From the NCBI GenBank assembly GCA_022791255.1, contig JAAVYR010000016.1:64497-128496 (forward strand): DNA of 64,000 nt, given 5' to 3'. Position 1 is the stretch's first letter. The number at the start of each line of letters is the position of its first letter. This DNA is from Peptococcaceae bacterium. Its GTDB lineage: Bacteria; Bacillota; Dehalobacteriia; UBA4068; JAAVYR01. Under the pieces are notes generated by a model, which did no database searches, had not been told where the DNA came from, and saw only the letters and a program-made list of their open reading frames with translations. The position numbers and the translations under genes were made by a program. This document shows, in pieces, positions 5,780-63,200 of the stretch.

Positions 5780-5865
5780 CCCATTTGCCTCCTCAGCTTG
5801 ATTAGTTTCATTCTATCATATCTTCTATGTCATCACAATAAGCCTTCCTGGATATTGCTCCATAT

Positions 5866-5985
5866 TACAAAAGCATTACTTACTACTACCGACAATTACC
5901 ATCCCCTCTGTCAGAAGTACTCAGTATATCTCTCGTACATCGTGGCACCATATGTCATCCTGAGGAACACCGTGACAAAGGATCT
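5866..5985. repeat. dispersed intergenic repeat, copy 1: TACTACCGACAATTAC...GTCAGAAGTACTCAGTAT...CGTGGCA module plus GTCATCCTGAGG...AAGGATC hairpin module
   Basis: Direct sequence similarity to copies at 25885-26000, 50258-50350, 50928-51185 and 23090-23135. Confidence 0.6.
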
Positions 5986-9980: not shown

Positions 9981-10232
9981 AGAGAGATCCTTTCCTTTTT
10001 ACAGCTATTCACTACAACGCAAATACTTTGGGAATGTTTCTCTTTCTTCTTTTACAAAAAGAACAAGCAAAGCCAGCCCAAAGTATTTGTGTTCTACCTA
10101 TTATAATTGATAGTACCATTTTTCCAAATTTTTAGCAAATGATAACACTTTGATAACATTGTGATTGTAGATTTTTAAATTTAATCCCGTCATAATAAAG
10201 TGAGACTATTTATAAGGAGGTAATTTTTCCCC

Positions 10233-10685
10233 GTCATCCTGAGGGGCTTTGCCCCGAAGGATCTTTAAATACTTTCTCGGGGAGCCGCCGCCTGTTTGAC
10301 GCGGGGAACGCTAACTTCTGGCGAGGCTGTTACTAGGTCAACCAGGCGGCAGTTTTGCTTCTTTTTCTAAAAGAAGTTAAAGACTTACCCAAAGGAACTT
10401 ATAGCATTTGCCCTTCTGTCAAAAGTACAATGTATATATTTAATAGTCACTTTCTACCGCTGACAGCTGGGCAAGTACGAATAATTTACTTTGGGCTCGC
10501 TTTGCCTGTTCTTTTAAGAAAAGAACCAAAATCGCAATCTGGTTGCCTTCCCCATTTACGAAAAGATCCTTCGCATTTGCTAACGCTCTGCTCAGGATGA
10601 CATAGAGAGACAGTGTCTACTTCTGATTGTCATCCTGAGGGGCATTTGCCCTGAAGGATCCTTCGCTTTCGCTTAGGATGACAAT
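10233..10685. mobile_element. non-autonomous MITE-like element, copy A
   Basis: GTCATCCTGAGG at 10233-10244 and its inverse CTCAGGATGAC at 10591-10601. A 65-nt 5' module and a 208-bp core (10341-10548) are about 90% identical to copy B at 23163-23371. An extra hairpin unit lies at 10629-10685. No intact ORF: the 81-aa ORF shares 15 aa with the copy-B ORF and then frameshifts. Confidence 0.45.
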
Positions 10686-10719
10686 ATGCATTACTTTTAT
10701 TTCTAGGAGGAACTATTTT

Positions 10720-11016
10720 ATGAAAAGCATTCTATACGACCTTTACTATGGCAATATCGACCCATCATCTTTCTATGAACCTCTGTTAAAAGAACATCGC
10801 AATTTCTTACGACGAAAATTTAATTCCCTTGATACGCTAAAGGATGAGCTTGATAAAGATTACCCTCAATTAGAAAACATCTTTGAGGAAGTGTCTGATT
10901 TTGCTTTTATAGAAGCTCGCTGGGATACATCTAATGCCTTCATGCAGGGTTTTTCTATGGGTGCTCGCATGATAGCTGAGGCTTACTGTATGGACCTTTC
11001 CGCCAAAGATAATTAA
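10720..11016 (+). CDS. hypothetical protein (98 aa)
   Basis: ORF starting at MKSILYDLYYGN immediately 3' of repeat element A, followed by a bidirectional terminator. Confidence 0.35.
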   Translation: MKSILYDLYYGNIDPSSFYEPLLKEHRNFLRRKFNSLDTLKDELDKDYPQLENIFEEVSDFAFIEARWDTSNAFMQGFSMGARMIAEAYCMDLSAKDN

Positions 11017-22977: not shown

Positions 22978-23026
22978 AAAAGAGAGATGGCATTTTTATC
23001 ATCTCTCTTTTTCTATGTCATTCTGA

Positions 23027-23523
23027 GCAAAGGCGAAGGATCTTTAAATACTTTCTCGGGGACCCGCCGCCTATATATACCACTTTTATATATTTGCCTA
23101 CATTCTGCTTTTCCCAGTCCGGAAGTACTAAGCATCGCTTACCTTAAAAGTGGCAGATTATAACCAGGCGGCAGTTTTGCTTCTTTTTCAAAAAGAAGTT
23201 AAAGATTTACCCAAAGGAACTTACACCACTTGTACTTCGGTCAAAAGTAAAATATATATTATTAAAAAGTTACTATCTACTTTTGACAGTTGGGCAAGTA
23301 CGAATTATTTACCTTGGGTTCGCTTTGCCTGTTCTTTTAAGAAAAGAACCAAAATCGCAATCTGGTTGCCTTTGCCTGGCAGCCTCGTCACTACCTAGTG
23401 CTCCCCGCGGCAAACAGATTGCCTTCCCCATATACTAAAAGATCCTTCGTCACTTTGTTCCTCAGGATGACATATAGAGGCAGTGTGTACTTCTGATTGT
23501 CATCCTGAGCGAAAGCGAAGGAT
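23027..23523. mobile_element. non-autonomous MITE-like element, copy B
   Basis: GTCATTCTGAGC at 23027-23038 and CTCAGGATGAC at 23460-23470. The 208-bp core (23163-23371) is about 90% identical to copy A. A terminal hairpin unit GTCATCCTGAGCGAAAGCGAAGGATC lies at 23498-23523. The variable middle embeds a copy of the short dispersed repeat (23090-23135). Confidence 0.45.
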
Positions 23524-23567
23524 CTTAAAAAAAGCCAAAGAACAATTTTCTTTTTGTTCCTTGGCTT

Positions 23568-23798
23568 TTATTTTTCTTCTTCATCTGGTAAAAATTCAAT
23601 AATATCGTTAGGCGTACAATCCAATATCCTGCACAATCGCTCCATAGTATCTGTATTCATATGCTTATTATGTCTTAATCTAGTAACAGTATTAGCACTA
23701 AATCCTTCTTTATAAATGAGAGTATATGTGGTAACTTTTCTATCTTTCATTGTCCGCCATAAAGGACTATAGCTAAGCACTCCACATCCCTCCCTCAT
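23568..23798 (-). CDS. helix-turn-helix transcriptional regulator (short XRE/YozG-like)
   Basis: The TLIYKEGFSANTVTRLRHNKHMNTDTMERLCRILDCTPNDIIEF segment is a classic short HTH regulator. Lies in a low-GC region. Confidence 0.6.
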   Translation of the reverse strand: MREGCGVLSYSPLWRTMKDRKVTTYTLIYKEGFSANTVTRLRHNKHMNTDTMERLCRILDCTPNDIIEFLPDEEEK

Positions 23799-23876
23799 TT
23801 AGTAGTTATCAACATTATCAAATAAAAGATAATAATTGCATATTACTAACAGGTTATGTATAATAAAAGAGCGTAG

Positions 23877-24104
23877 TTATTTTTTAGGATAGGGCTTCAT
23901 TTCAAAAGTCCTACCCATCAAGTAGTCCACACTGGTTCCATAGAAGTCCGCAAGTTTCCCCATGACATCTACTGGTACATCTAATCTGCCTATTTCATAA
24001 CTTGAATAAGTCGTTTGATGAACATTTAAATACTGAGCCAATTGTTCTTGACTCAAATCGTGGTCTTCTCTTAAATCACGAATACGCTGATACATCCCTT
24101 TCAC
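23877..24104 (-). CDS. XRE-family helix-turn-helix transcriptional regulator
   Basis: The LREDHDLSQEQLAQYLNVHQTTYSSYEIGRLDVPVDVMGKLADFYGTSVDYL segment matches an HTH_3 fold. Lies in a low-GC region. Confidence 0.7.
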   Translation of the reverse strand: MKGMYQRIRDLREDHDLSQEQLAQYLNVHQTTYSSYEIGRLDVPVDVMGKLADFYGTSVDYLMGRTFEMKPYPKK

Positions 24105-24190
24105 CTCTAGGCTTAGTATGCAATATTCATCTTTTTTTACTCCTCGTTTAATACATTTTCACTTAACGCTATTTTAGGAAGGTGTTTTTT

Positions 24191-24424
24191 ATGGTACGCA
24201 TGATAGGTGAACACTATTGCTATAACATCTACTGTCTCTATCAGTGGTGCGACCGCTGTGCCGCTATTGACATCACCATCGACGCCGACGGCCGCTGCGC
24301 CAGCTGCGTGCCTCTCCGCCTCACCGAAGAAGAGCTCAAGGAACGCAAACAGAAATATTACGGTATCGAGCTAGAGGAGCCCACGCCCTACACCGTGAAA
24401 AAACATAACGACCCCGATGAATGA
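24191..24424 (+). CDS. small Cys-rich (zinc-ribbon-like) hypothetical protein
   Basis: AGGAAGG ribosome-binding site. CYNIYC...CDRC...C..C cysteine pairs. 77 aa. Confidence 0.35.
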   Translation: MVRMIGEHYCYNIYCLYQWCDRCAAIDITIDADGRCASCVPLRLTEEELKERKQKYYGIELEEPTPYTVKKHNDPDE

Positions 24425-24592
24425 AAGCCCCCTTCCCGTCTGCCTACACTAGAAGACATCAAACGAATTGAAAAAGCCTATCGCGATGAAAAGCTCCACC
24501 GCTATGGCCGCAAAGAATACCCCAAAAAAAAGAGAGTCAGAAAAAAATAATTTCCGACTCTCTTTTTCATTGGTTTTATAAATACCGATTAT

Positions 24593-25762
24593 TTATTTGG
24601 TCAGCCGCTCCATGGCCTTTTTGGTGTTTTCCGCCGTGTTAAAGGCAGTAAGGCGCAGATACCCTTCGCCATTTTTCCCAAAGCCGGAGCCAGGAGTCAC
24701 TACAATGTGATACTGCTCTAAGAGCACATCAAAGTATTCCCAAGAAGTCAGGCCGTCCGGGCAATGCAGCCAGATGTAGGGAGAATGGACCCCGCCGCAA
24801 TAGGAAATACCCAGCTTATCAAAGGCAGCCCCCATGACTTTGGCATTTTCCCGGTAGTGGGCGATGTTTTCTTTACACTGGGCCATGCCTTCCGGAGTAA
24901 AGACAGCTTCTGCTCCTCGCTGTACGATGTATGGCACCCCGTTAAATTTCGTGGTCTGTCGCCGCAGCCACATAGCATTTAAGGACGCGCCGTCTTTTAC
25001 CAATGCTTTTGGTACGATGGTATAACCGCAGCGTGTGCCGGTAAAGCCTGCTGTCTTAGAAAGAGAGCAAAGCTCGATGGCGCATTTTTCTGCCCCAGGG
25101 ATTTGATAAATAGAAGTAGGCAGCACAGGGTCGTTGATGAATGCTTCATATGCAGCGTCAAATAAGATAACCGCGTCATGAGCCAAGGCATATTCTACCC
25201 AAGCAGTTAATTGTTCTCTGTTATACACAGCCCCTGTAGGGTTATTTGGGGAGCAGATGTAGATGATATCCACATGTTCTTCCCCCGGCATCGGCAGGAA
25301 GCCGTTGGCAGCGTTAGCGTCTAAGAGCACCACTTTTCTGCCATCCATGATATTGGTATCTACATAAACAGGATATACAGGGTCCGGAACAGCTACAATA
25401 TTATTGGTAGAGAAAATATTTAAGATGTTGCCTACATCGCTTTTAGCACCGTCAGAAATGAAAATTTCATCCAGCGCCAGCTCTACACCTTTGCCGGCAT
25501 AATATTTAACGATAGCCTCTCTTAAGAAACCATAGCCTTGTTCATCGCCATAGCCGTGGAAGGTTTCGGCTTTGCCCATTTCAGCCACAGCCTTGGTCAT
25601 AGCATCGATAACCACAGGGACTAAAGGACGCGTCACATCGCCAATGCTCAAGCGAATAATTTCTGCATCTGGATGAGCCGCCGTATATTCCCGTTGTCTG
25701 CGGGCAACTTCTGTAAATAAATAGCTAGTCGCTAAGTTAGAAAAATTTTCATTTACCTTCAT
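24593..25762 (-). CDS. dapL: LL-diaminopimelate aminotransferase
   Basis: KVNENFSNLATSYLFTEV, LSIGD, IFISDGAK, CSPNNPTG, ILFDAAY, FNG, HYRENA and VTPGSGFG blocks match DapL. PLP-binding Lys in SLSKTAGFTG. Confidence 0.85.
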   Translation of the reverse strand: MKVNENFSNLATSYLFTEVARRQREYTAAHPDAEIIRLSIGDVTRPLVPVVIDAMTKAVAEMGKAETFHGYGDEQGYGFLREAIVKYYAGKGVELALDEIFISDGAKSDVGNILNIFSTNNIVAVPDPVYPVYVDTNIMDGRKVVLLDANAANGFLPMPGEEHVDIIYICSPNNPTGAVYNREQLTAWVEYALAHDAVILFDAAYEAFINDPVLPTSIYQIPGAEKCAIELCSLSKTAGFTGTRCGYTIVPKALVKDGASLNAMWLRRQTTKFNGVPYIVQRGAEAVFTPEGMAQCKENIAHYRENAKVMGAAFDKLGISYCGGVHSPYIWLHCPDGLTSWEYFDVLLEQYHIVVTPGSGFGKNGEGYLRLTAFNTAENTKKAMERLTK

Positions 25763-25884
25763 AAAAATAAACCTCCTCTTGCCGGCATCTCATACATACC
25801 AGCCTGCACTTATCTGATTGTGTAGATTAGCATATCACATTCCCGTAAAAATTTCCAGAACATTCTAAGATATGCCACATTCTA

Positions 25885-26000
25885 CAAAAGCATTTCATAC
25901 TACTACCGACAATTACCTATTCATCTGCCGGAAGTACCCAGTATCGCCCTCCTACAGCGTGGCACTATCCTAAGATCCTTCACATTCGTTCAGGATGACA
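25885..26000. repeat. dispersed intergenic repeat, copy 2 (hairpin module inverted)
   Basis: CATACTACTACCGACAATTACC...CTGCCGGAAGTACCCAGTAT...CGTGGCA...AAGATCCTTC...CAGGATGAC. Confidence 0.6.
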
Positions 26001-50192: not shown

Positions 50193-50257
50193 CCATTCGT
50201 TACTTAAAAGAAACTCACTGCTTTTTACACAAGGTCCAGATAGTGCCGGATGTTGCT

Positions 50258-50350
50258 CCATACTACGGAAGCAATACTTTCTACTATCGATAATTACTTT
50301 TTCTTCTATCAGAAGTACGCAATATTTCTCTTGCACTCTGTGACACTATA
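50258..50350. repeat. dispersed intergenic repeat, copy 3 (degenerate), lying between ilvB and ilvN
   Basis: ACTACGGAAGCAATAC...CTACTATCGATAATTAC...TATCAGAAGTACGCAATAT...TGTGACA. Confidence 0.5.
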
Positions 50351-50927: not shown

Positions 50928-51185
50928 TGCTCCAAATTACAAAGGCACTACTCTCTACTACCGAGCAATTACATATCCTTCTGTCAGAAGTAGCAAGTAT
51001 TTACCAGGCATATCGTGGCATTATCCGTACATCGTGGCATAATCTTGTCATCCTGAGCAAAGTGAAACGGAGCAAAGGATCTTAGATACTGCCACACACT
51101 ACAAAAGCATTGCTCTCTACTACCAGCAATCACACATCTCGCTGCCGGAAGTACTTAGTATTTCTCATGTACTTTGTGGCAATAT
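50928..51185. repeat. dispersed intergenic repeat, two tandem copies (4 and 5), the first with a hairpin module
   Basis: CTCTACTACCGAGCAATTAC...CTGTCAGAAGTAGCAAGTAT...CGTGGCA...GTCATCCTGAGCAAAG...CAAAGGATCT, then CTCTACTACCAGCAATCAC...GCCGGAAGTACTTAGTAT...TGTGGCA. Confidence 0.6.
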
Positions 51186-51251: not shown

Positions 51252-54200
51252 TTATTTCCAGGTTTCTTTGTTCCCATCTTTGGTGTAATCATGTTCGTTT
51301 GCAGCTTCGATTACATCAAAGTATGCCCAGTGGTTAGTAGCCACATCTGGGAAGGTTTTGTATTGAGCGCCAGCGATGCTAGCAGCGTCAATTTCCCGTT
51401 CAAGCATGTTGTTTACGATGCTTACTACTTCAGCTCTGCTGATGTTTTGGTTTGGACGGAAGGTACCATCTGGGTAACCGCCGATCCAGCCTTTAGCATA
51501 TGCAGAGTTGATGCTGTTGATAGCCCAGTGGCTAGCAGCTACATCAGTAAATGCATTCTTGTCGGTGTTTTCCAGTTTGTCGAAGCGGGAAGCCATAGCA
51601 GCAAATTCAGCTCTGGTAATTGCAGCATCTGGACGGAAAGTACCGTCTTCATAACCATTGATGATGTTGTAATCTTCCATGTAGCCGATGTAGTTTGCAT
51701 ACCAAGCGCCTGCTTTTACATCACTGAAGCTGGAGTTGTAGCTAGCTTCTACATCCATTTTTTCATTCATCAAGCGAGCGAAGATAGTGATAGCTTCTGC
51801 TCTGGTGATGGATTTATTTGGAGCGAAGGTGCCGTCTTCATAACCACGAACATAAGCGATATGGTCGTCTTTGTTCAGGTCAGCAGTTTTGTTGCTTTCA
51901 AAGATAGCAGTAAAGGTAGTATCTTCTTTAATTCTTACATCAGAAGGATCTACGATTGTCTTGCCATCTAAGGACCAACCTTTGAATTCGTAACCATCTT
52001 TAGCAGTTACTTTAGGCGCTTTGGTAGGATATGCGTTAGCTTTTACGCTTTCGCTGTCGCTGCCAGAGATAGTGCCGCCTTTGCCTACTTTGTAGGTTAC
52101 ATCATAGTATTTGCCGCCGCTGGAGCTAGAACCGCCACCGATAGAACCGGTAGAGGATTTCTTAGGTGTGCCGGTAGCTGTACCAGCGTCACTTGTACCA
52201 GCGTTGTTAGTTGCAGTTACTTCTACAGTGTATTGGTCGCCATTGGTCAGGCCAGTAACTACCTTTTCTAAAGGTTGATCTGCAGTTACATCTGCAGCAG
52301 TGCCTACAACATCACCGTTTTTATCTTTTACGGTTACGGTGTATTTGGTGATTTCAGCACCGTTTTCAGCAGGTTTCGTCCAAGTGATAGTCAATTTTTC
52401 GTTGCCTGCTTTTACAGTTACGACTGGAGCGTCTGGTTTTTGAGCTGGGATATTGGTTACATTAGAACCAATAGTACCGCTATAAGTGCCATCTTCTTTT
52501 GCAGTAGCTTTTACAGTGATATTTTTGCCGATATCATCTTTTGTGATAGTATATTCGATACCGGTTTCACCAGCAATAGCATCGTCACCACGATACCATT
52601 GTAATGTTACATCATTCATAGTAACACCAGCAGGTCCCATGGTTCCTTCAGCAGCTGTTAATTTTTCACCAACAGTGGTGTTACCAGTTACTGCTAATTG
52701 ACCAGTCAATACTGCTTTACCTGGAGTAATTGCTGCGCTGGTCTTGCTACCAGTGTAGTTACCATCTGCTTTAGCAGTGATTTTTACGGTGATAGCTTTA
52801 TTCATATCATCAGCAGTTACAGTGTAAGTAGTACCAGTTGCACCAGCAATATTAGCACCTGCGCGTAACCATTGGATATCTACATCAGCTGCAGCTGCAT
52901 TTACACCAGTAAAGTTTGCAGTGAGAGTTTCCCCAATAGATGCAGCGCCGTCACCATTAGCATCAGTCAAGTCAATGGTAGGAGCATTGTTGATAGCCAA
53001 TTTGCCAATAGTCCAGTCAATGGTCAAGCCTTCTTTTGCAGCATAGTTAGCACCAGCATCTACTTTGAAGGTTACTACATAAGTACCAGCATTAGTAGCA
53101 GTGGTAGCAACAGCACCAGCTGCACCATTCTTAGGCTGTACATTGGTTACAGTGATAGTACCCATACCGTTAACACCATCTTTTGCAGCAACAACAGGTG
53201 TTTGAGCAGCTTTGTTATAAATAACATCTGTTACTTTGAAATTGCCGTTTTGAGGTTCGGTTAATGGTTTTGGAGCGCCAACAGTAATATTAGCTGCAGC
53301 ACTAGCCTTGTAGTTGTCGTTTTCTTTTACCCGTACCCAATATTTAGTACCAGCATTAGTACCATTTACAGTGATTTTACCATCAGCACCAGCAGCAACT
53401 ACAGTAGCATCAGTAAAGGTTGTACCATTAGTGCTGATTTCATAGGTTCTGGTATTATCATAGTTTTTAATGGTAATAACACCATCGTTACCTGCGATAG
53501 TAGCATCTTGTTTTTCCAAGTTAGGAGTATCAGTATCAGCTTTTGCTACCGTTACAGATAAGTTCTGATCGATGGTTTGACCAGATTTTGCAGATGTAAA
53601 GGTTACTTTACCAGTGTAAGTCTTAGCGTCTACCTTAGTAGCTTTCAAGGTAACCTTTACAGTAGCGGTTTTAGCGCCAGTGTTAGGTACAGTTACAGTC
53701 ATTTTTTCTAAGTCAAAGTTACCTGCACCTGTAGCATCTAAGCTAACTGCAACATCATCCAATTCATCTGTACCAATGTTGGTCAGAGTGAATGTTGTTT
53801 CAGCAGTTAATGCAGAACCTGTGTATTTCAGGTTGGTTGGGAAAGCAGCAGTATTTGCTACTTTAAATGCAAACTGAACTGGAACTTTACCATCTACCAA
53901 AGTAACAGTTGCGGTTTTAGCATCATCTGGCCCTTCACTAGTAGCATATATCCATGCAAGCAACTGATCGGTAGGTCCAAATCCTGTTACGGGAACAATC
54001 TTACTTGTTGCACCATTCATAAGATTTTCATCGTTATTAACATTAATTAAAACGCTACTAGATGGTGCACCATTCCCTACATTTGCTGTAATATCAGCAA
54101 CACCACCATAGGGATAAGTCTCACCATTTTCGTTATCGTACCAATCCATAAAGGCTTTGGTAATAACAGTTGTGTAAATACCTTCACCGCCGTCAGCACC

Positions 54201-54425
54201 AATTTTAATGCCAACACCAGTCATTTTTGCGGTATCGGTTTCTTCGGCCCCAGATGCATTAATGTTTACAAACTGCACACTATGGCTTGCTGCAAAAGCA
54301 GATATTGGTGTAATTGTAAACAGCATGGATGCACAGAGAACAGAAGCTACTACTTTTTTCAAAGATAGTTTACCCACTTCTTTAATCTCTCCTTTCAATA
54401 TTAAAATAAAGACATACGTTTGCAA
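51252..54425 (-). CDS. S-layer-homology (SLH) domain surface protein, 1057 aa, multi-domain
   Basis: N-terminal signal peptide (…LFTITPISAFA/ASH). Thr/Ala/Gly/Val-rich beta-sandwich repeats, an FN3 domain (PDAPVVTVKAGNEKLTITWTKP...YTVEVTATN) and a Listeria-Bacteroides-type repeat (YDVTYKVGKGGTISG...GYEFKGW). Three C-terminal SLH domains (FSDV..WYANYI, FTDVAASHWA, FPDVATNHWA). Confidence 0.8.
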   Translation of the reverse strand: MQTYVFILILKGEIKEVGKLSLKKVVASVLCASMLFTITPISAFAASHSVQFVNINASGAEETDTAKMTGVGIKIGADGGEGIYTTVITKAFMDWYDNENGETYPYGGVADITANVGNGAPSSSVLINVNNDENLMNGATSKIVPVTGFGPTDQLLAWIYATSEGPDDAKTATVTLVDGKVPVQFAFKVANTAAFPTNLKYTGSALTAETTFTLTNIGTDELDDVAVSLDATGAGNFDLEKMTVTVPNTGAKTATVKVTLKATKVDAKTYTGKVTFTSAKSGQTIDQNLSVTVAKADTDTPNLEKQDATIAGNDGVITIKNYDNTRTYEISTNGTTFTDATVVAAGADGKITVNGTNAGTKYWVRVKENDNYKASAAANITVGAPKPLTEPQNGNFKVTDVIYNKAAQTPVVAAKDGVNGMGTITVTNVQPKNGAAGAVATTATNAGTYVVTFKVDAGANYAAKEGLTIDWTIGKLAINNAPTIDLTDANGDGAASIGETLTANFTGVNAAAADVDIQWLRAGANIAGATGTTYTVTADDMNKAITVKITAKADGNYTGSKTSAAITPGKAVLTGQLAVTGNTTVGEKLTAAEGTMGPAGVTMNDVTLQWYRGDDAIAGETGIEYTITKDDIGKNITVKATAKEDGTYSGTIGSNVTNIPAQKPDAPVVTVKAGNEKLTITWTKPAENGAEITKYTVTVKDKNGDVVGTAADVTADQPLEKVVTGLTNGDQYTVEVTATNNAGTSDAGTATGTPKKSSTGSIGGGSSSSGGKYYDVTYKVGKGGTISGSDSESVKANAYPTKAPKVTAKDGYEFKGWSLDGKTIVDPSDVRIKEDTTFTAIFESNKTADLNKDDHIAYVRGYEDGTFAPNKSITRAEAITIFARLMNEKMDVEASYNSSFSDVKAGAWYANYIGYMEDYNIINGYEDGTFRPDAAITRAEFAAMASRFDKLENTDKNAFTDVAASHWAINSINSAYAKGWIGGYPDGTFRPNQNISRAEVVSIVNNMLEREIDAASIAGAQYKTFPDVATNHWAYFDVIEAANEHDYTKDGNKETWK

Positions 54426-54446
54426 CCGAATTTTTTAAAATCACCA

Positions 54447-56552
54447 CTATTCACCAGGTGCAAAAATAGAACCTGCCGTGGTACCCAATGCGTCTGTAAT
54501 TTCCCGTTTGGTTAAGTCTCGTTCTCCACCATCGCTATTTTTTGCTGACCAAGCATTGAGGATAGCATTTCTAATAGCAGCAGCGTTACCAGCACCGGTA
54601 ACACTAATGCCCACTGCACGTAATTGGCTATTATTAATTTGATCCATTGTATTATCTCGACAACAATCATTAATCCAACCTAAATAACATTCATATAAAT
54701 AGGTCTTATCTGCACGAGATAGAACAGCACGATTAGAACCATCAAATTGAACAGTCTGTGTTGTTCCCTTATCATAAGTAGATGTGGATACCCCTACACG
54801 AGAACCGCAAGAAACCCAGTTACTCATGCCATAAGTATCAACAACTTCCCAAATAACACGGTCAATCCCTGCGGTTGTTGTCGCATATGGTAAGAGCTCA
54901 ATCACTTCTTTATCCGCACCGGATAAATCATATAAACTATATAGAGTGTTAGAACCGGAAATCATTCTCACACGGAGCGCCGGTTTGGCCGGGCGAGGGA
55001 TAATCTTACCCTCTGCATTTTTCCGAGTTACTTCTACTTTGATATAGTTTACACCGGCCGTAGTATAGCGACCGTAATCTACTGGAGTTACCGTGTATTG
55101 TCTTCCTGGTTCACCCATAGCTTCCCACTCAGCAATGTAGGCTTCATCTGCCACAAAAGCAGCCTTGAGCACCATATCCCCTTGGACGTCCGTAAAATCA
55201 GCTTTATCAGCCGGCTCACCTAGCTGACGGGACGCATCCGGTTCGGTCTCACTATCCACTGCCATATTATTGGCATTACTAGATGAAACTCTTGCACCAT
55301 AAGTGGTAGGTGTTTCACTTTCATACGGGATCCAACAACCAAAGATATATCCTGGATGTGCGTATTCCAGTTGTTTATCTTCTTGGAATTTACTTACGTA
55401 TTGGGTAGCGTCCCCTTTTGGGACGATTACAGATCCCAGCATAGAATTATCCCAATCATAAAATACAATAGCAGCAAAGTCACTCGGGTCAGGAGGCCCG
55501 CCACTACCAGAGTTTACAGAGATACCATTTTTCACTGACAGGAAGTGCCAGTTTAGGATATCCACAGGCTCGGTATCCGTGGTGTAAAAATATGTACCAC
55601 TGCGCCCTGCAGGAGAATTAACCGCAGTGGCATCCTCTGCCACTTTGATACCATATTTCGCCATGAAATCCTCTGCCGTCTCTGCTGGAGGGTCATCAGG
55701 ATTTTCTGGGGTATCTGGGTTATCAGGGTCCGTTGGATCAGTTGGCCCCGGTTCTGTAGGCTCTCCGCCACCTTCTCCCGTACCACCGCCACCTTCACTA
55801 CCATCTCCTGTTTCATCAGCCTGAGTGCTAGGCTCATCTGTTTCATCAGGGTTTGGTGTGGGGTTTTCAGGGTCTGGTTCTTCCGGGTCAGGGGTCGGCT
55901 CTACAGGCGGTTCTTCCGGTGGTTCCGGCGTCTCCGTTGGTAACGCAAAACGCACTGTTACCACTTGGTCCACAGCAGATGTAGCGTCTATCAAGCCATG
56001 ATTAGACTGGAAACCATTACCGGCTGCCAGTTCTTGTAAGCCTTCTAGTCCCATCTCGCTGGGTTGCACCTGATTTAGCCCATATAATGGTGCCGGTGCT
56101 TGCACAGGCACATTGGTAGGGGTAGGTGCTTCCACGCTTAAGTAAAGATATCCCTTATTGGTCGTGCTGTCAATGACAGTAAATGCAGTCTTCCCGCTGA
56201 TAATGTCTTTCCCCTTCGTAGGCAAAGGCACAGCGTGGTCCCACATCGTTTCACCTTCAGCTAGCGCCGTTGGGTCTACTTTAGCCTTATTTAACAGTTC
56301 GTCCGTTACTTCATCTGCCCATCCGCAAGGCTTGAGCGCAGAGGCATCATATTCTAATACCACACCGGTAGATTGGAAGCTATCATTCTTGCTATCTATT
56401 CTTAAGCCCAGTTCTAATGCAGCGCCATTATCCACTCTGGCCGCAACGACCGTTACTTCCGGTGGCACTTGGTTCGCACCCACAACACCCAGGCTAAAGA
56501 AAGCTACCAATAATGCTGCCATGCACATCAATAACATGATTTTCTTTCTCAT
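54447..56552 (-). CDS. secreted surface protein, 701 aa, with an N-terminal cohesin-like module and a Pro/Glu/Thr/Asp-rich linker
   Basis: Signal peptide MRKKIMLLMCMAALLVAFFSLGVVGA. About 170-aa N-terminal domain containing a TGVVLEYDASALKP block. About 90-residue PE/PT/DP-rich linker. C-terminal domain of unknown function. Confidence 0.5.
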   Translation of the reverse strand: MRKKIMLLMCMAALLVAFFSLGVVGANQVPPEVTVVAARVDNGAALELGLRIDSKNDSFQSTGVVLEYDASALKPCGWADEVTDELLNKAKVDPTALAEGETMWDHAVPLPTKGKDIISGKTAFTVIDSTTNKGYLYLSVEAPTPTNVPVQAPAPLYGLNQVQPSEMGLEGLQELAAGNGFQSNHGLIDATSAVDQVVTVRFALPTETPEPPEEPPVEPTPDPEEPDPENPTPNPDETDEPSTQADETGDGSEGGGGTGEGGGEPTEPGPTDPTDPDNPDTPENPDDPPAETAEDFMAKYGIKVAEDATAVNSPAGRSGTYFYTTDTEPVDILNWHFLSVKNGISVNSGSGGPPDPSDFAAIVFYDWDNSMLGSVIVPKGDATQYVSKFQEDKQLEYAHPGYIFGCWIPYESETPTTYGARVSSSNANNMAVDSETEPDASRQLGEPADKADFTDVQGDMVLKAAFVADEAYIAEWEAMGEPGRQYTVTPVDYGRYTTAGVNYIKVEVTRKNAEGKIIPRPAKPALRVRMISGSNTLYSLYDLSGADKEVIELLPYATTTAGIDRVIWEVVDTYGMSNWVSCGSRVGVSTSTYDKGTTQTVQFDGSNRAVLSRADKTYLYECYLGWINDCCRDNTMDQINNSQLRAVGISVTGAGNAAAIRNAILNAWSAKNSDGGERDLTKREITDALGTTAGSIFAPGE

Positions 56553-56597
56553 GTTCCGTTTTCCCTCCTTCGATCCATTATCCTTGCATGGGGCAAA

Positions 56598-58286
56598 TCA
56601 ATTATTCTGCCGCACCACCTCCTTCACCTGATTATAATAATCTTTATGCATTAAGATATTTAAATCTTGCATATCTATTTTACCATCGCCGTCAATATCT
56701 GCACAGTATTTTTCATAGTTATATTTTGCCAATTTTTGTTCGGCGACCGCATTGCCTTCTTCTGCAGGCGGTTCTTTCCGACTATGGTTGATAAAGCCTA
56801 AGAGAACGGTTCTATCGGAAAGCTTGGTCTTATCATCGCCACCGACTTCTGTTTCTTTTTCATTGGTGATATCACCAGGAATTAAGAAGGTATCCGGCAC
56901 GCTGCATTCACCGCTTGCCAGAGAGAGACCTTCATACACAGCAGTGATATGGCCCGGCTTTAAGATTTCTACCTTATAGATCCCAGCTTCCCCCACAGTA
57001 AAGGTTCCTTTTTGTTTATATCTCCAAGTACCCTTACTATTACCGTGAAAAGTCTTTTGGCCAGTGACATCTAGCTCTGTCCAGCTTGTCCCACTGCTAG
57101 CATCATCCCCTGTAGTGGTATCACCAGCGTCATCAGCCAGTCCGCTTTCACCGCCGCCACTTTCACTATCTCCGCCATCTTCACCACCACCAGGTGTTTC
57201 CCCGCCGCCTTCTTCCGTGTCGCCGCCTTGGGGACCTTGCCATACCGGCAACTCTATAAAACCAGTGACATCAGCAGGATAGGTTCCATCTTCGCCTTGA
57301 AGATACCACTTGATGGTAACTGGCTTTTTGGGGTCATAAGAAGTAATCACACCAGCTTCCAGCTCAGAAGCTAAATCACAATCAATATCTGTCTGTACTT
57401 GCAGCTCGATACGATAAGTGCCATCTGCTTCTTTTTCTACTGGACAAATAAATTCATGATAAGGCATACCATTGATGCAGACTTCGCCATCGATTTCCTC
57501 TACCACCAATTTACCTTCAAACTCAGCAGGCAATCGTTTAGCTACCAACTCCGGTAAATCATCAATAGTTACCGGCAAGTCGGCTATATTTACTTCTACA
57601 TTATGACGGAAATACCCTTGGTAGTAACCAACACGGTCAGGCCGAACCTGCATTTCCTCTGCTGTTGCTGTTCGCCAGATACTTTCTGCTACCATCAAAT
57701 CATGGTCAGGAACGGTATTCCCATAGTGAGAATGTTCCTTAATCATGTCCTCAAAATGGAGCAACTGAATATCTGCCAGCGATAAATCAGCAACAGCACT
57801 GCCATCAGTATCCTGCAAAAGGATTTCCAGCAAATGAACACGATGCTCTTCTCCGTTTACAGGAGGTAAAACATTACTACGAGTCCAGCCAAGGGCATAA
57901 TACTCAGCACCAGAGTCCCGGGTACCGCTTAAAACATTTCCTCCCAAACCAATAGCCGCCAGTTCATAATAAGGCTCACTACCACTGGCAATGTGCGGTG
58001 TAATGTTAGCATTACTTCCTGCTGGCAATTGAAAGCCAAAAGAGCCAGAATATAACGGTGCGTCTGCCGGTTCTATTAAATATACATTTAATGTTCTTGC
58101 ACCACCAGTCCCCAGCATTGCAACATTACCCAATGTAACCTCATACCGATAAGGCACAACTGGAACATCAGGAACGACAGGGTCTTCCTCTCCTTCAGAG
58201 GCAGCCCTTACCACCAATGGCGCAGCCAACACAAAAACCATGAAGCAAAGCAATAATAAATATCGCCTTTTTCCAACCCGCTGCAT
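56598..58286 (-). CDS. secreted protein, 562 aa, with a C-terminal dockerin-like Ca-binding repeat
   Basis: Signal peptide (…VVRA/ASEG), Gly/Asp/Glu-rich linker and C-terminal DIDGDGKIDMQDLNILMHKDYY (DxDxDGxxDxxD, an EF-hand/dockerin-type loop). Confidence 0.5.
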   Translation of the reverse strand: MQRVGKRRYLLLLCFMVFVLAAPLVVRAASEGEEDPVVPDVPVVPYRYEVTLGNVAMLGTGGARTLNVYLIEPADAPLYSGSFGFQLPAGSNANITPHIASGSEPYYELAAIGLGGNVLSGTRDSGAEYYALGWTRSNVLPPVNGEEHRVHLLEILLQDTDGSAVADLSLADIQLLHFEDMIKEHSHYGNTVPDHDLMVAESIWRTATAEEMQVRPDRVGYYQGYFRHNVEVNIADLPVTIDDLPELVAKRLPAEFEGKLVVEEIDGEVCINGMPYHEFICPVEKEADGTYRIELQVQTDIDCDLASELEAGVITSYDPKKPVTIKWYLQGEDGTYPADVTGFIELPVWQGPQGGDTEEGGGETPGGGEDGGDSESGGGESGLADDAGDTTTGDDASSGTSWTELDVTGQKTFHGNSKGTWRYKQKGTFTVGEAGIYKVEILKPGHITAVYEGLSLASGECSVPDTFLIPGDITNEKETEVGGDDKTKLSDRTVLLGFINHSRKEPPAEEGNAVAEQKLAKYNYEKYCADIDGDGKIDMQDLNILMHKDYYNQVKEVVRQNN

Positions 58287-58344
58287 AATATTACCTTCTT
58301 TTTACTTTCCAGATTTCAATATAATTCTAACCCGATATCATCAC

Positions 58345-60087
58345 CTAGTTTAACTTATTGTAAATACGATATAAGAATACGGCTGTTTCCGCCCGGGTAG
58401 TGTTTGCTAAAGGATTAAGTTTATGACTTTCATCCCCGGCGATAAAGCCTTCTTCTACCATACGCCCTACACTCTCAATAGCATAATCCGAAATTTGGTT
58501 TTTGTCTACAAATTCCGCAAAAATTGTTTCATCAACAGAAGCCCCTTCTATCTTTTGCAGATAAACAAGAGCGCGGCTGGTTAATACCATCATATCTTGC
58601 CGGCTGATACTAGCTTCCGGTTCAAAGCGGTTATCGCCGCTGCCCTGGGCAATCCCCAGCTGTTTCGCAATGGCAATTTCCTTATAATAATATTTATCCG
58701 GTGTTACATCGGCAAAGTTCCCTTCTGGTTCTCCATTAGGACTTAACATTCTCACTAATAAAACCATAAAGTCCGCCCGGGTAATTCGGTCATTTGGAGA
58801 GAAGGTAGTTGGCGTTGTTCCTTTGATAATGCCCTTTTCCGCTAAAGCCAAAATTGCTTCTCTAGCCCAAGGTACAGAAGTCAAATCACTAAAACTGCTA
58901 CCATTGGTTGCTGTACCATTATTGGCATTGTTTTCGTTATCTTCTTTATCCTGTTTGATGTCACTAATAGCCCCACGGCTTAACACTGTCAATACAAAAT
59001 CTCTGGTAGCAGAAGCCTGATTTTTCTTTACAGTAGCTGTTAGCGTTACTTGCGTTTTAGTAGCCCGAGGAAATACATTCCCGGTGTTACTAATCACTTC
59101 CGAGTCACTGCTAGCCCAAGTGATTTCGGTACTATCTTGGCCAGTAGTAGGCAAGCCTACAATGCTGGTAACAGCATTGGCGCTATCTCCCGGTATGTAA
59201 GAAATGGTCAAATGCTCTGTCACATAGTCCACCAATTGTTGGTCCGTTAACAGCACCACTTCTTCAGTTTTATCTACTTTATCCACGGTTACTTTATCAT
59301 ATTTAGTACCATAACCGTTCAGAGACACCCGATAGGAATAAGTACCATCGGTTAAATATGTTTCTGCTTTGCCATTGCTATCTGCTTCCACTGTCCGATT
59401 GTTTACTAATACGCTAGCAGCCAAAGCCTGTCCCACACCATCTTTGATATCAAAGGTAATGAGGCGCAAGTTTGCTGGTCTTGCATCGTCATTCGGATAG
59501 TCGAAGGTCACATCGCAAAACAGTTCATTATCAAGGTTATAAAAATAATAGGTTAAATCTAATGCACCGATAAACGCGCCGCTCCGCCAATTTACATTGC
59601 CGGCTGCACTCATGTCTAAAAGTCTTAAAGTATCCCAGTCGAGGTCATCGGCAGTTACCCCGTCTGCTAATTGAAATTCTAATTGAACCAACGCTTTTGG
59701 TTCGGTACGGCTATCTAAAGTATTCTCTTGAGAATACCAAGCAAACATAACATAGCCGTCTTCATTGGAAATCAAATCACTTACATCATAGTTATCTTGA
59801 GTAACTACTACCCCAGCCTGTCTTTGAATGGCTCTATTAAAGTCGTTAGCTCGAGATAATTGCATTTTAGTTTCATCAAAATCTAAAGCAAAGCGGCCGA
59901 TGGAACCTTCTACCCCTTCTATAGAAATGGTAGCAATAAAACGGTTGCCAGAGGCGATATTTCCTTCTACTATGTAGCCTACTTGGTCTGCAGCCATTGC
60001 TTGTACGCCACAGCATAAGAAGCACAAGACAGCTACCAGCAGAGTAGCAAACCACTTTTGTTTACCCATCAACCTCTCTCCTTTCAA
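58345..60087 (-). CDS. SLH-anchored surface protein, 580 aa, with an N-terminal cohesin-like module (putative anchoring scaffoldin)
   Basis: Signal peptide (…CCGVQAMA/ADQ). N-terminal beta-rich domain with a GRFALDFDETKMQLS block, an Ig-like middle domain (ITWASSDSEVISNTGNV) and three C-terminal SLH domains (FSDLTSVPWAREAI, FADVTPDKYYYKEI, FAEFVDKNQISDYAI). Confidence 0.65.
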   Translation of the reverse strand: MKGERLMGKQKWFATLLVAVLCFLCCGVQAMAADQVGYIVEGNIASGNRFIATISIEGVEGSIGRFALDFDETKMQLSRANDFNRAIQRQAGVVVTQDNYDVSDLISNEDGYVMFAWYSQENTLDSRTEPKALVQLEFQLADGVTADDLDWDTLRLLDMSAAGNVNWRSGAFIGALDLTYYFYNLDNELFCDVTFDYPNDDARPANLRLITFDIKDGVGQALAASVLVNNRTVEADSNGKAETYLTDGTYSYRVSLNGYGTKYDKVTVDKVDKTEEVVLLTDQQLVDYVTEHLTISYIPGDSANAVTSIVGLPTTGQDSTEITWASSDSEVISNTGNVFPRATKTQVTLTATVKKNQASATRDFVLTVLSRGAISDIKQDKEDNENNANNGTATNGSSFSDLTSVPWAREAILALAEKGIIKGTTPTTFSPNDRITRADFMVLLVRMLSPNGEPEGNFADVTPDKYYYKEIAIAKQLGIAQGSGDNRFEPEASISRQDMMVLTSRALVYLQKIEGASVDETIFAEFVDKNQISDYAIESVGRMVEEGFIAGDESHKLNPLANTTRAETAVFLYRIYNKLN

Positions 60088-60254
60088 TTTCGTAAGTCAT
60101 CAAAATTCGTAACTTGTAAGTTTAAAAACATATAACATATCACTTCCTGGGCAGCCTGAGCAATATCTCAAGCCGCCCGGAAGTCATATGATGAAACTAT
60201 AGTCTAACCAATTTAATCATAGTATACCATAGTTTTTTTTAGATAACCACTGGC

Positions 60255-63200
60255 TTATTTTGCCATGAATTCTGCATAGGTTTCTTGGTTATAAGCCTTA
60301 CCGAAGCTATTCTTTGCGTAAAGGATATCGTTAACATCGGTAACACCACCGTTATCGTTGATATCGCCCCACAATTGAGCTTGACAGCCTGGTGTGTTGG
60401 TCAAGATACCATTGGCAATCTGAGACAAGTCTCTCATGTCAACAACGATACCGTTGCGGTTTGCTTCCCCAGCAGTCAATTGAACTTCTTTCACATCACC
60501 AGTATCTGGTTTACCAAATACGATAGTATCCTCTACATTAGCGTCAGTAGCGATTTCAAAATCAGTGATGACATATTTCAAGAAACCGTTTTTGGTAACA
60601 GTTACAGTCCAGTTACCACTAGGAACATGAGCAGTTACATTGGATTTCTGGCTGATAGGCTTATCACCAGTAAATTCAAATGTTGTATCATCATCCCGAG
60701 TAAAGGTAACTTTTGCTGCGGTCTGAGGATCTTCGCTGATTAAGTATTTTACAATCATGGTTACTGTGAAGGTTTGTTCATCGAAGTTTGCAACGATAAT
60801 TGTATCTGCTTTTACTGGATCCATGGTGTAAGTAGTAACTTTAGTAGTTGCATCTGCAGCAGGTACAGTTACTTTTGTACCGTCAACAGTTACTTCACCT
60901 AATTGATATTTTTCAGCAGGTTTCATATCGAAGCTTGGGGTATCCCCGATGTTTACAACCGTAATACCATGAGCAACGATAGTACCTTGGCCTTTCCCTA
61001 CTTTAGAGGTAACAATCTTTTGGATTGGATCGCCATCTAAAGGTTTGAAAGTAGCAGTAATGGTATGATTATTGTTTGCTTCTAGACCAGTCAAACTTAC
61101 AGAAGCTTTTACAACGCCGTTATTTTTAGCATCTGGATCAGTAGTATGATCTGTCGCAATAACTGTTACAGAACCACCAGTTAATGTTGCGGTGGTACCA
61201 GGTGTATCAGCTAATGCAATGTCTTGACCGTCTACAATAATTCTATCGATTTCATAACCATCTTTTGCTTCTACAGTAGCGGCAAAGTCTTCATAGTTAT
61301 CACCAGAGGCAGCGATAATATAATCTTTGCGGTCGCCTTTGCCGATAACATCGGTATCATGTTTGATTTCCCCAAATTCACCGCCTACTACAGTAACAAC
61401 AGGCGCATGTTTCGGATCTACTTCTTCACCTTTTTCATCAAATTCACCGAAGATAACAGTAATTACTTGGTCAGAAGCTACATTGGTAAAGGTGTGTTTG
61501 TATACAAAGCCATCTTTACCTTTGTCATCACCTAAGTTTACATCAACACCGTTAACGATAACTTGGGATACTGCATAGTAATGTCCGGTAGCTAAGCCAG
61601 TTGCAGCATCAGGAGTGAATACGAATTCACTGGAAGTGCTAGAGCCTTTATCTAATGTTTCTACAACATTTTTGTTGTCACCAGATACTTCAACTTTATC
61701 TGTAACAGCTACAGGAGCAGTAATAGTACCATTACCTTGTGCATTCGCAGTAACAGTGTATTGTGCTGGAACAAATTTTGTGTTGTCAATCTTAATGGAC
61801 AAATCACCAGCTTGCAACCGTTCATCTAATGGAGTAGCTGGATTATCAGTGCCATCCGGATCTAATGGGTCACCGATAATATCGTCAGCTGGGATTTTAT
61901 ATTGGTTTGTAGTTTTATCTAAGGTAGCAGTAGTGGTCTTAATAACAGTTGGATTACCGTCATCGCCTTCTGGCCCATAGATAGTTACTTCCAATGTTTC
62001 AGGTTTGGTGCCATCCCAGTCATAACCAGGTTTTGGTTGGATGTTGAAGCTGTATTCTACACCGTTGAAAGCGACAGTATCACCGGAAAGTTGACCTTTT
62101 TCATCACCGTCAGGTGTAGCTGTAGCGCTATCGCCACTGCCTTCTACAAAATCTAATACAACAGGGTGATAGATTTTTGCTTTCAAAGGAGCTTCATTGC
62201 GTACAGTTTCTTTTGCAACAGAGAATTCTTTTAATTCTTTTGCTTTTGCTTCATCAATGTTGCCAGGATATGGCCAGAAGCCTAATTTTTCTACAATGAA
62301 TTTGTAGGTAGTGTCAGCAGTAGCTGTGAAGTATACTTCCCCACGGTCATCGGTAGTCAATGTCATGATTGGGGTAGCGTCAGCGTCAGCTGCAGCTGCG
62401 TCGTAAACCCTTACAGTAGCGTTTTCAATTGGGTCACCAGTTTCTACATTGGTTACGATAAATTCAGCTCTGATATTGTTTTCCGGACGAGGGAAAGTAA
62501 TCTGAGTCCGTACGTCATAACCAATTGCTTCTGGGTTATAATTTTCATCCATTGGGTCTTTGTAAGGGAATGCTTGGTAGAAACCTTCACTGCCTACACG
62601 ACCAGTAGCCATGGATTTGTCCAAACGACCTTCAGGTAATTCACCGCTGGTAAATTTGCTTGGATCATTTTGGTCATCAGCTACACGCCAGAAGTTGCCT
62701 AAGAATTCATCAATAGCGTCTTGTTTACCAGCAAAGTTAGTGTTTGCCCAAGCAAGATATGCAGTTTCATCTACAGGTGTTACGAATAAAGACTCGTTAT
62801 TGATGAGAGTTTCTACATCTACACCTTCTTTTACATCTAAGGTGTAGGTAGCGATTAATACTTTATTTGTAAGAGCATCTACATAACCAGGGTCAAGAAG
62901 GCCACTGGACTCATCTTTCCCTTTCCAGGAGAACATGTGGATACCATGTGCAGCGTCAGTAGTTGGGTTGTCTAATTTAGCTGTTGTGAATTCGCTTTCA
63001 GTTAAACGAACAGTAGATGCAGTGTTTAATACAAAGCCATTGGTTGCAGCTAAATCAAAGATTTTTGTATCATAACGCAAACCAAAAGTACCGTGAGTAG
63101 CTTTCATGTTTTGTAATTCTACAGTAACGGTCATTTGCGTTTGGGCTTCATTCCAAGTACCAGTTACTACATACAAAGGTCCGTTTACAGCAGTCAAGCC

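Follow-up and report, generated by a model that had tools for sequence, protein, structure and literature searches.

The described systems closest to the one considered here are the repetitive extragenic palindromic (REP) or palindromic units (PU) and the bacterial interspersed mosaic elements (BIMEs) of E. coli and other Proteobacteria, together with the REPINs mobilised by RAYT transposases. Also comparable are the ERIC (IRU) sequences of enterobacteria, each a single long hairpin of ~127 bp, bcr1 of Bacillus cereus, the pneumococcal BOX, RUP and SPRITE elements, the Correia elements of Neisseria, and the attC sites of integrons. Here we analyze a 64,000-nucleotide stretch from a Peptococcaceae bacterium (contig JAAVYR010000016.1, positions 64,497 to 128,496 of the forward strand; hereafter “the window”), which carries two look-alike intergenic composites of 450-508 bp, termed copies A and B. 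We estimate a probability of about 0.55 that these composites belong to a new family of nested, non-autonomous palindromic repeats, BIME-like in organization, in which three repeat families form mosaics in the intergenic DNA of uncultured Peptococcaceae. The three are the H half-unit, a short sequence that starts with GTCATCCTGAG; the D1 repeat; and an inner palindromic element. Sequences fetched for comparison carry L numbers.

Several features are shared with REP units and BIMEs. The repeats described here are short imperfect palindromes in intergenic DNA, often located after terminators or between convergent genes, and they alternate in orientation, with a linker motif at tail-to-tail junctions that is distinct from what occupies head-to-head junctions. 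Pairs in inverted orientation fold into long hairpins, substitutions in the stems occur as paired changes that preserve them, and clusters vary between strains. When the defining properties of the known class are applied, H units prove to be short imperfect palindromes over-represented in extragenic DNA, as REP units are, and their alternation with junction-specific linkers matches that of BIMEs. In contrast, the GTAG-type head of REP units is absent, the units starting with GTCATCCTGAG and being unrelated in sequence. The host is a relative of Gram-positive-type Clostridia, and the head-to-head position can hold a structured palindrome of ~335 nt, far larger than any BIME linker. No RAYT was seen among the scanned window proteins or at the relatives' loci, and the units occur also in viral contigs of other base composition.

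Other comparisons are less close. As with ERIC, the inner element is an intergenic imperfect palindrome that is unusually conserved between species, has no known transposase or clear function, and exists in length variants produced by internal insertions at fixed sites and by internal deletions. Unlike ERIC, it has no similarity in sequence, measures ~335 bp, and forms five hairpins, including symmetric terminal hairpins with a hypervariable loop segment. The bcr1, BOX, RUP, SPRITE and Correia elements are likewise small, non-coding and dispersed, with inverted ends and stable predicted hairpins, and share modularity (as in the A-B-C organization of BOX), nesting, and presence or absence by strain. 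However, those elements have target-site duplications (TA for Correia, TTTAT for bcr1) or a linked insertion sequence (IS) family, whereas only duplication of a whole H unit is seen here and no parent IS was found. Integron attC sites are also imperfect palindromes 3′ of small cassette genes, with two stem segments split by unpaired bases and a variable center, and at one locus a recombination breakpoint falls inside the element (L047 versus L051, below). Nonetheless, no intI gene is present in the window or at the fetched loci, the stems GTCAAC/GTTTGAC and GGCAAAC/GTTGCCT depart from the R-box consensus RYYYAAC/GTTRRRY, and the inner element is much longer than attC and does not follow every cassette. 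The literature searched held nothing relevant on the 11-nucleotide H-unit start, on peptide-like translations of H units or on repeats of Peptococcaceae, and no description of the H unit was found there.

A preliminary description of the window had pointed out two similar stretches of about 450-500 bp. Both are present as described, with core coordinates accurate to within 1 nt, and they lie between unrelated flanks (copy A, 10233-10682; copy B, 23017-23524). Copy A runs from GTCATCCTGAG (10233) to the inverse sequence CTCAGGATGAC (10591-10601); beyond it lie a 27-nt linker and one more H hairpin, which ends at 10682. Copy B runs from GTCATTCTGAG (23017) to CTCAGGATGAC (23461-23471), followed by the linker and GTCATCCTGAG..GAAGGATC, which ends at 23524. 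The core that they share is 210 nt long in copy A (10340-10549) and 211 nt in copy B (23162-23372), with 189 of 210 positions identical (89.6%). Substitutions are spread unevenly, such that ~19 differences fall in the central ~65 nt and only 7 in the outer ~145 nt. The core is conserved as had been stated, though it is not free of indels: a single 1-nt indel (TATA-TATT) separates the copies. Two hairpins that had been placed within the core are both found (Table 1).

The organization of these stretches is that of a mosaic, in which common H units flank a separate inner palindromic element. The preliminary description had regarded each stretch as resembling a miniature inverted-repeat transposable element (MITE), with a structured RNA as the alternative. 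Small size, lack of coding capacity, inverted ends and presence or absence among relatives are all supported, but a single unit with its own GTCATCCTGAG terminal inverted repeats (TIRs) is not, as H units and the core also occur apart. Indeed, each kind of module occurs independently of the others.

An H half-unit consists of GTCATCCTGAG, 7-20 variable bases that often form a small stem, and GAAGGATC, for a total of ~26-37 nt. Lone units are located in the window at 5954, 25971-26000 (inverted), 51047 and ~33909 (degenerate), and others are frequent in the intergenic DNA of relatives, including L042, L054 and L061, in all three of which an H half-unit directly follows the terminator of the same 199-aa gene. 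At a tolerance of at most one mismatch, the sequence GTCATYCTGAG occurs at 11 sites in the window versus 1.6 expected, a count that none of 100 shuffled sequences reached. All of these sites are intergenic except one, a one-mismatch site inside gyrA. A 22-base version of the H-unit pattern is present also in six viral contigs with 52-64% G+C, a composition far from the 45% of the window genome. In these IMG/VR contigs (L012-L017), H units of the form GTCATCCTGAG...GAAGGATCTTT are single, in tandem or in inverted pairs, as at L015 406-520. The H unit thus seems to be common to distant hosts rather than private to the window genome.

H units alternate in orientation. Tail-to-tail pairs are joined by a conserved linker of 26-27 nt; head-to-head pairs abut directly or are parted by a short spacer or a large insert. 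Head-to-head junctions are found at 10629-10682 in the window, in L010 and in L015. The module composed of a right-hand H unit, the linker and a left-hand H unit is 94% identical between copies A and B (where it constitutes repeat D6), and it stands alone in L061 (3250-3350), L005 and L010. A hammerhead-like reading of the H unit (CUGAG...CGAAGG) was ruled out, given that the conserved UGA of the hammerhead core is missing and that Rfam gives no hit.

The D1 family comprises repeats of ~96 nt with TGCCAC...GTGGCA ends and an internal CTGTCAGAAGTAC hairpin. D1 is always intergenic and lies mostly beside an H unit, and its 3′ part, when inverted, is similar to the 27-nt linker. In copy B and, independently, in L010, a terminal hairpin of the inner element has a D1-like repeat in place of its interior, at an equivalent position of the stem (after GCCGCCT / GCAATCT). 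The sequences hint that D1 has a preferred insertion point.

The inner element extends over ~335 nt from GGGGAGCCGCCGCCTG to CAGATTGCCTTCCCC, has GGGGA/TCCCC ends, and is composed of two inverted terminal hairpins (13-bp stems with ~38-nt loops), two A/T-rich hairpins of 8 bp and a long central hairpin. A complete version of 335 nt is present in L037 (12027-12361), at the locus orthologous to that of copy A and with no H unit on either side; L037 and L042 are parts of one 29-kb contig from a related species whose SerRS protein is 98% identical and whose genes are 80-87% identical in DNA. The element also occurs free of H units in L047. Compared with L037, copy A has undergone deletion of its right terminal hairpin between TTGCCTT direct repeats. 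Moreover, the 45 nt that follow the core in copy B match, as reverse complement (~80%), the 45 nt that precede it in copy A. What had been described as a variable segment of 70-90 nt is therefore explained by the loss of one terminal hairpin in copy A and by the presence of a D1-like repeat in the other hairpin in copy B.

Several partial versions exist. A half copy lies beside ruvC in another organism (L010), with its D1-like repeat in the terminal hairpin opposite to that affected in copy B; right-half versions of ~175 nt are found at the copy B locus (hereafter locus B) in L046-L052; and L041 carries a truncated inner element at the copy A locus (locus A). A 62-nt palindrome at 10024-10085 of the window is a further derivative, such that the census for the 64-kb window stands at two full copies and one 62-nt derivative. 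Copies are dispersed, as the flanks of A and B are unrelated and the ruvC site in L010 constitutes a third locus. Profile searches of the window and of ~110 kb from relatives found no inner copies beyond the same two loci and the one ruvC locus.

Wider scans returned little. A 23-base core pattern gave only a chance hit, to a Bacteroidetes metagenome-assembled genome, in the genome collection; plasmid and phage records held no match to the element; and three core or hairpin patterns had no hits in viral sequences. The 19 hits of a 17-mer in the viral scan were taken as chance because none was matched to the element in the fetched loci. The metagenome scan produced one real hit, L010, from a collection that is incomplete for the window organism, since L006, a JGI contig that holds copy A, was not returned. 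The organism is poorly represented in public data, and where short-read contigs include the flanking genes they end within the shared parts of the element; the repeats thus explain the breaks in short-read assemblies of this lineage at these points.

Both strands of every copy fold far better than shuffled sequences, with z-scores of −6.6 to −11. This is due to the palindromic nature of the element, which hits itself on the opposite strand at 65-69% identity. More informative are the terminal stems, which are maintained by paired substitutions. When seven copies are aligned in one orientation, the stem comprises 13 bp (8+5, separated by a conserved 1×1 mismatch), and 98.9% of its cells are paired. 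Four of the 13 pairs show double changes, and one position appears as C-G, A-U and U-A. Values this high were reached by none of 500 shuffles, and slid controls were at most 43% paired. In an alternative rod, formed by end-to-end pairing of the left and right termini, the covarying changes give mismatches, which indicates that local hairpins are what is maintained. We rejected the rod as the conserved structure of the termini for this reason, despite the fact that it is still the minimum-energy fold of the complete L037 copy. Hairpin 2 (GTTCTTTT/AAAAGAAC) adds two compensatory variants, GC to CG in L041 and TA to GC in L037. In all three full copies, the fold of the window's minus strand is 9-17 kcal/mol more stable than that of the plus strand and contains 2-6 more G-U pairs, an advantage that is in part a matter of base composition.

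Each terminal loop contains a 13-nt segment that is nearly fully different between copies, with 4 of 13 positions identical between orthologous loci. Even in the near-identical copies of L047 and L051, about half of the 13 positions differ versus ~3% elsewhere. The sequences on either side, CGCGGGGA and RCGAGG, are invariant in the window, L037, L041, L047 and L051. Divergence of the segment exceeds that of neutral sites. A role as a guide was considered and rejected, because the 13-nt segments match neither the flanks nor the rest of the loci beyond chance.

Between species, the inner element is conserved beyond the level of silent sites, which are ~65% identical. Its core is 82-84% identical between the window and L037 (copy A, 82.1%; copy B, 84.1%), whereas comparison of the window with the L042 genome gives 57-68% identity at codon third positions and 64-72% in ordinary intergenic DNA. 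The right half of copy B is likewise 79% identical to that of L047, where the adjacent helix-turn-helix (HTH) proteins are 35% identical. Copies A and B are closer to each other (89.6%) than either is to L037, whose copy is at the locus orthologous to A, a relationship that would fit turnover or conversion. Judging from these alignments, the inner element would be either constrained, or younger than the species split and homogenized among its copies. The claim that conservation lies at the nucleotide level was borne out by comparison of the copies, and it extends to structure.

L061 provides an exact empty site for copy B. This sequence aligns to both flanks. Between the terminators of the 199-aa gene and of the convergent HTH gene it has a single H half-unit, where the window has an H unit (23017-23042), intervening DNA (23043-23498) and another H unit (23499-23524). 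Thus, the copy B block, which is present or absent as a unit, was gained or lost as such between two direct H half-units. The block without counterpart comprises an outer spacer, the inner element, a second outer spacer, an inverted H unit (23441-23471), the linker (23472-23498) and a direct H unit. No short target-site duplication was found at the 11-nt ends, at the GGGGA/TCCCC ends or at the L061 empty site.

Both loci are variable among relatives. Locus B has at least six arrangements (window, L005, L042, L047, L051/L054 and L061), and locus A has four (window, L037, L041 and L040). The island at locus B, from the 199-aa gene to an aminotransferase gene, holds none, two or three unrelated small Xre-type HTH genes with H and D1 modules between them. 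That at locus A, beside serS, holds a DUF6809 gene and an HTH_3 gene; it is absent in L040, and the HTH gene has been lost in the window. An orphan sequence resembling a ribosome-binding site (AAGGAGG, 10214-10232) lies 12 nt before the left end of copy A and is followed by no start codon. Its context resembles the real ribosome-binding site of the DUF6809 gene across the element (10706-10722), and it may have been left behind when a rearrangement removed the HTH gene that is present in L037. L047 and L051 encode an identical 199-aa protein (both were retrieved with P0127) and are near-identical up to this gene and through the left part of the element, but they diverge from a point inside terminal hairpin R onward and carry different HTH genes. 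We considered movement of an HTH gene and the element as one unit and rejected it, since the HTH proteins at the two loci are unrelated.

The composites do not encode protein and are not parts of a larger duplication. Similarity between copies A and B starts and stops at the ends of the element and their flanks do not align, which disposes of the segmental duplication that the preliminary description had named as the case against its own reading. Its view that the stretches are non-coding is supported in turn, because copies A and B and L037 do not preserve a reading frame. An 81-aa open reading frame (ORF) in copy A has no relative among 5.8 billion protein clusters, and the gene caller placed no gene at the element in L006. 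Protein coding was rejected because the ORF has no relatives and the frame is not preserved, and the stretches should be annotated as repeats rather than genes, with the ORFs inside them treated as spurious. Also in agreement with the preliminary description, no known RNA family matches at gathering score. Rfam identified only five tRNAs in the whole window at the gathering threshold, and searches of both copies and the complete L037 copy at E≤10 or E≤1 gave only chance hairpin matches far below threshold.

The reading that we favor takes this as a BIME-like organization, in which H units alternate in orientation, with the linker at the tail-to-tail junction and the ~335-nt palindrome at the head-to-head junction, and D1 repeats are nested inside. 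By analogy with REPIN/RAYT and IS200/IS605 systems, the repeats might spread or persist through single-stranded hairpin DNA acted on by an enzyme encoded elsewhere, perhaps a RAYT or a Y1 transposase like those of IS200/IS605. H units could also recombine with one another, and gene conversion among copies may keep them alike. Any effects on the host would presumably be secondary; these could include stabilization of transcript ends, insulation of convergent genes from each other or hotspots of recombination at variable gene islands.

Several observations weigh against the nested-repeat interpretation. The scanned proteins of the 64-kb window include no transposase, integrase or RAYT/Y1_Tnp protein, the gene lists of the relatives' loci include no transposase or RAYT and no IS with the same ends, and the mobilizing enzyme is therefore a conjecture. 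Short target-site duplications, too, are missing from the element ends. The inner element is known from only three loci in all, and relatives have it at the same two loci as the window, a recurrence that a conserved, vertically inherited feature would explain no less well than mobility would. The difference from L061 is compatible with either insertion or deletion between direct H units, and identity beyond the neutral level could reflect a function for the host instead of selfish spread. Finally, the evidence on copy number consists of the 64-kb window and the scans, of which those of genomes and metagenomes gave one chance hit and one real one.

It is also possible, although we consider it unlikely, that the inner element is the gene or a cis-acting part of a structured RNA of ~330 nt whose hairpins are under selection, with H and D1 merely surrounding it. 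The more likely transcribed strand would then be the minus strand of the window, which is the sense direction of the neighboring HTH genes. Covariation in the terminal hairpins, the compensatory changes in hairpin 2, identity well above that of silent sites and very low folding energies are all consistent with an RNA, as is the better folding of the same strand in three of three full copies. Furthermore, the element lies just 3′ of HTH genes, in the same relative orientation wherever such genes adjoin it (L037/L041, window locus B, L047 and L051; at window locus A the HTH gene is missing beside the element), and one terminal loop per strand carries C-rich UCCCC/GCCUCG motifs. Yet the strand asymmetry is small and partly compositional, and the sole wobble pair in the terminal stem (L047) favors the opposite strand. 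A sequence palindrome whose strands fold almost equally is typical of repeats that act at the DNA level and unusual for RNA genes, and what looks like compensatory change can arise in DNA hairpins by templated correction. An essential RNA is difficult to reconcile with the loss of one terminal hairpin from each of copies A and B and with the half length of other copies. There is also no conserved promoter or terminator and no Rfam match, and copy B and the L047 copy sit between two convergent terminators. Less probable than an RNA is that the inner element serves at the DNA level as a site for recombination or protein binding at the edge of islands of HTH cassettes, with its hairpins, in cruciform or single-stranded form, recognized by a recombinase and with cassettes swapped by crossovers inside the element, loosely as at attC. 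The variability of both islands, the L047/L051 breakpoint within hairpin R with different HTH genes beyond it, conservation far better than that of the adjacent cassette genes, and a stem in which a conserved 1×1 mismatch separates two helices below a large variable loop all speak for such a site. Against it, neither locus has a gene for an integrase or recombinase in or near it, the stems do not fit the R-box consensus, and the pattern would be the same if repeats underwent ordinary homologous recombination. What separates the cassettes of an island is an H-type module or nothing, not an inner element, and the HTH genes beside copies at different loci are unrelated.

On a bolder reading, to which we attach little weight, the inner element would be a functional structured nucleic acid, either RNA or single-stranded or cruciform DNA, that is maintained by selection and marks the boundary at which HTH cassettes are swapped, as a new kind of recombination site or as a guide element that carries specificity. 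If this were true, the terminal hairpins would present the hypervariable 13-nt segment between invariant G-rich motifs for cassette exchange, in conjunction with a partner enzyme. Least probable in our view is a classical MITE, along the lines of the preliminary description, a single non-autonomous element of ~370-455 bp moved through its own GTCATCCTGAG TIRs by a cut-and-paste transposase. The inverted ends are perfect over 11 nt and are extended by GAAGGATC(TTT)/(AAA)GATCCTTC, the element is as small and non-coding as a MITE, two dispersed copies are alike from the left end through the linker, and in L051 the inner element is followed by what remains of the right-hand H unit, so that the composite may be the ancestral form. 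However, no target-site duplication adjoins the 11-nt ends, and the window and the fetched loci yielded no IS with such ends. The supposed TIR units are far more common than the core and occur singly and in unrelated viral contigs, the core occurs without them, and the shared block runs past the right-hand unit into the linker and the next H unit (repeat D6).

Table 1. Locations of repeat modules in the window, with corresponding features of relatives where an L number is given
Feature	Position	Strand	Remarks
Copy A, left H half-unit, GTCATCCTGAG-GGGCTTTGCCCC-GAAGGATC	10233..10263	+	REP-like hairpin; left TIR of the preliminary description; same unit type alone elsewhere
Copy A, outer spacer TTTAAATACTTTCTC, from H unit to inner element	10264..10278	+	Identical in copy B; diverged remnant 3′ of inner element in L051
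Copy A, inner palindromic element, GGGGAG...TTCCCC	10279..10553	+	Right terminal hairpin (arm X′) gone
Copy A, terminal hairpin L of inner element	10287..10350	+	Stem GCCGCCTG-T-TTGAC / GTCAA-C-CAGGCGGC, 8+5 bp with conserved 1×1 mismatch; loop ~38 nt
Copy A, hypervariable 13-nt segment in loop of hairpin L	10308..10320	+	Flanked by invariant CGCGGGGA and GCGAGGCTG
Copy A, conserved 210-nt core	10340..10549	+	Hairpin 1, 10358-10376; long central hairpin, 10388-10495; hairpin 2, 10508-10526
Copy A, right H half-unit, inverted	10565..10601	-	Right TIR of the preliminary description
Copy A, tail-to-tail linker ATAGAGAGACAGTGTCTACTTCTGATT, 27 nt	10602..10628	+	94% conserved with copy B within repeat D6
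Copy A, complete H palindrome	10629..10682	+	H and inverted H, head to head at GAAGGATCCTTC
62-nt mini-palindrome	10024..10085	.	From core arm bearing hairpin 2; downstream of promoter-like site 10127-10100 (minus)
Copy B, resident H half-unit	23017..23042	+	Directly after terminator of 199-aa gene; H half-unit at same place in L042, L054 and L061
Copy B, 482-nt block	23043..23524	+	No counterpart in L061 empty site
Copy B, inner palindromic element	23058..23429	+	Interior of left terminal hairpin swapped for nested D1-like repeat 23073-23161
Copy B, conserved 211-nt core	23162..23372	+	
Copy B, terminal hairpin R	23357..23422	+	Stem GCAATCTG-G-TTGCC / GGCAA-A-CAGATTGC; hypervariable 13-mer 23389-23401
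D1 repeats, window	5856-5951, 25873-25968, 50254-50349, 50928-51024, 51090-51185		Nested: 23073-23161
D1 repeats, elsewhere	L005 1013-1109; L042 12058-12131; L010		
Locus B island	window 22978-24593; L042 10600-10754; L047 8066-8900; L051 659-2209; L061 2689-4097		

The window otherwise carries radA, apgM, serS, gyrA, gyrB, panE, panB, nifS/nifU, por genes, sigH, cysS, gltX and genes for large SLH-domain proteins, and its SerRS is 100% identical to a protein of a metagenome-assembled genome labeled “Peptococcaceae bacterium”, the nearest named species by SerRS belonging to Thermincola (71%). A strong promoter-like site, TTGGAA-16-TATAAT, precedes the 62-nt mini-palindrome on the minus strand, just upstream of genes for a 276-aa protein and an ABC-F ATPase. 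The mini-palindrome probably lies in the 5′ leader of this operon. ABC-F genes are often under the control of leader attenuation, and the hairpin of the mini-palindrome may act in the ABC-F leader. At the far end of the window (51252-63869, minus strand) are very large ORFs of 1057, 701, 562, 580 and 1204 aa, the first of which has SLH, fibronectin-III and Listeria-Bacteroides repeat domains; the run also contains internal DNA repeats (D2, D5 and D8). These ORFs probably encode S-layer or cell-surface proteins.

The repeats described here would extend BIME-like mosaics to an uncultured branch of Clostridia. That the H unit (GTCATCCTGAG...GAAGGATC) is shared with unrelated viral contigs raises the question of which factor recognizes it. 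Four properties meet in the inner element: its identity between species exceeds that of neutral sites, its terminal hairpins covary, their loops include a hypervariable segment, and it lies at the border of variable gene islands. Should it have a partner enzyme, it could represent a new system of recombination or mobilization; otherwise, it would be one more selfish palindrome.

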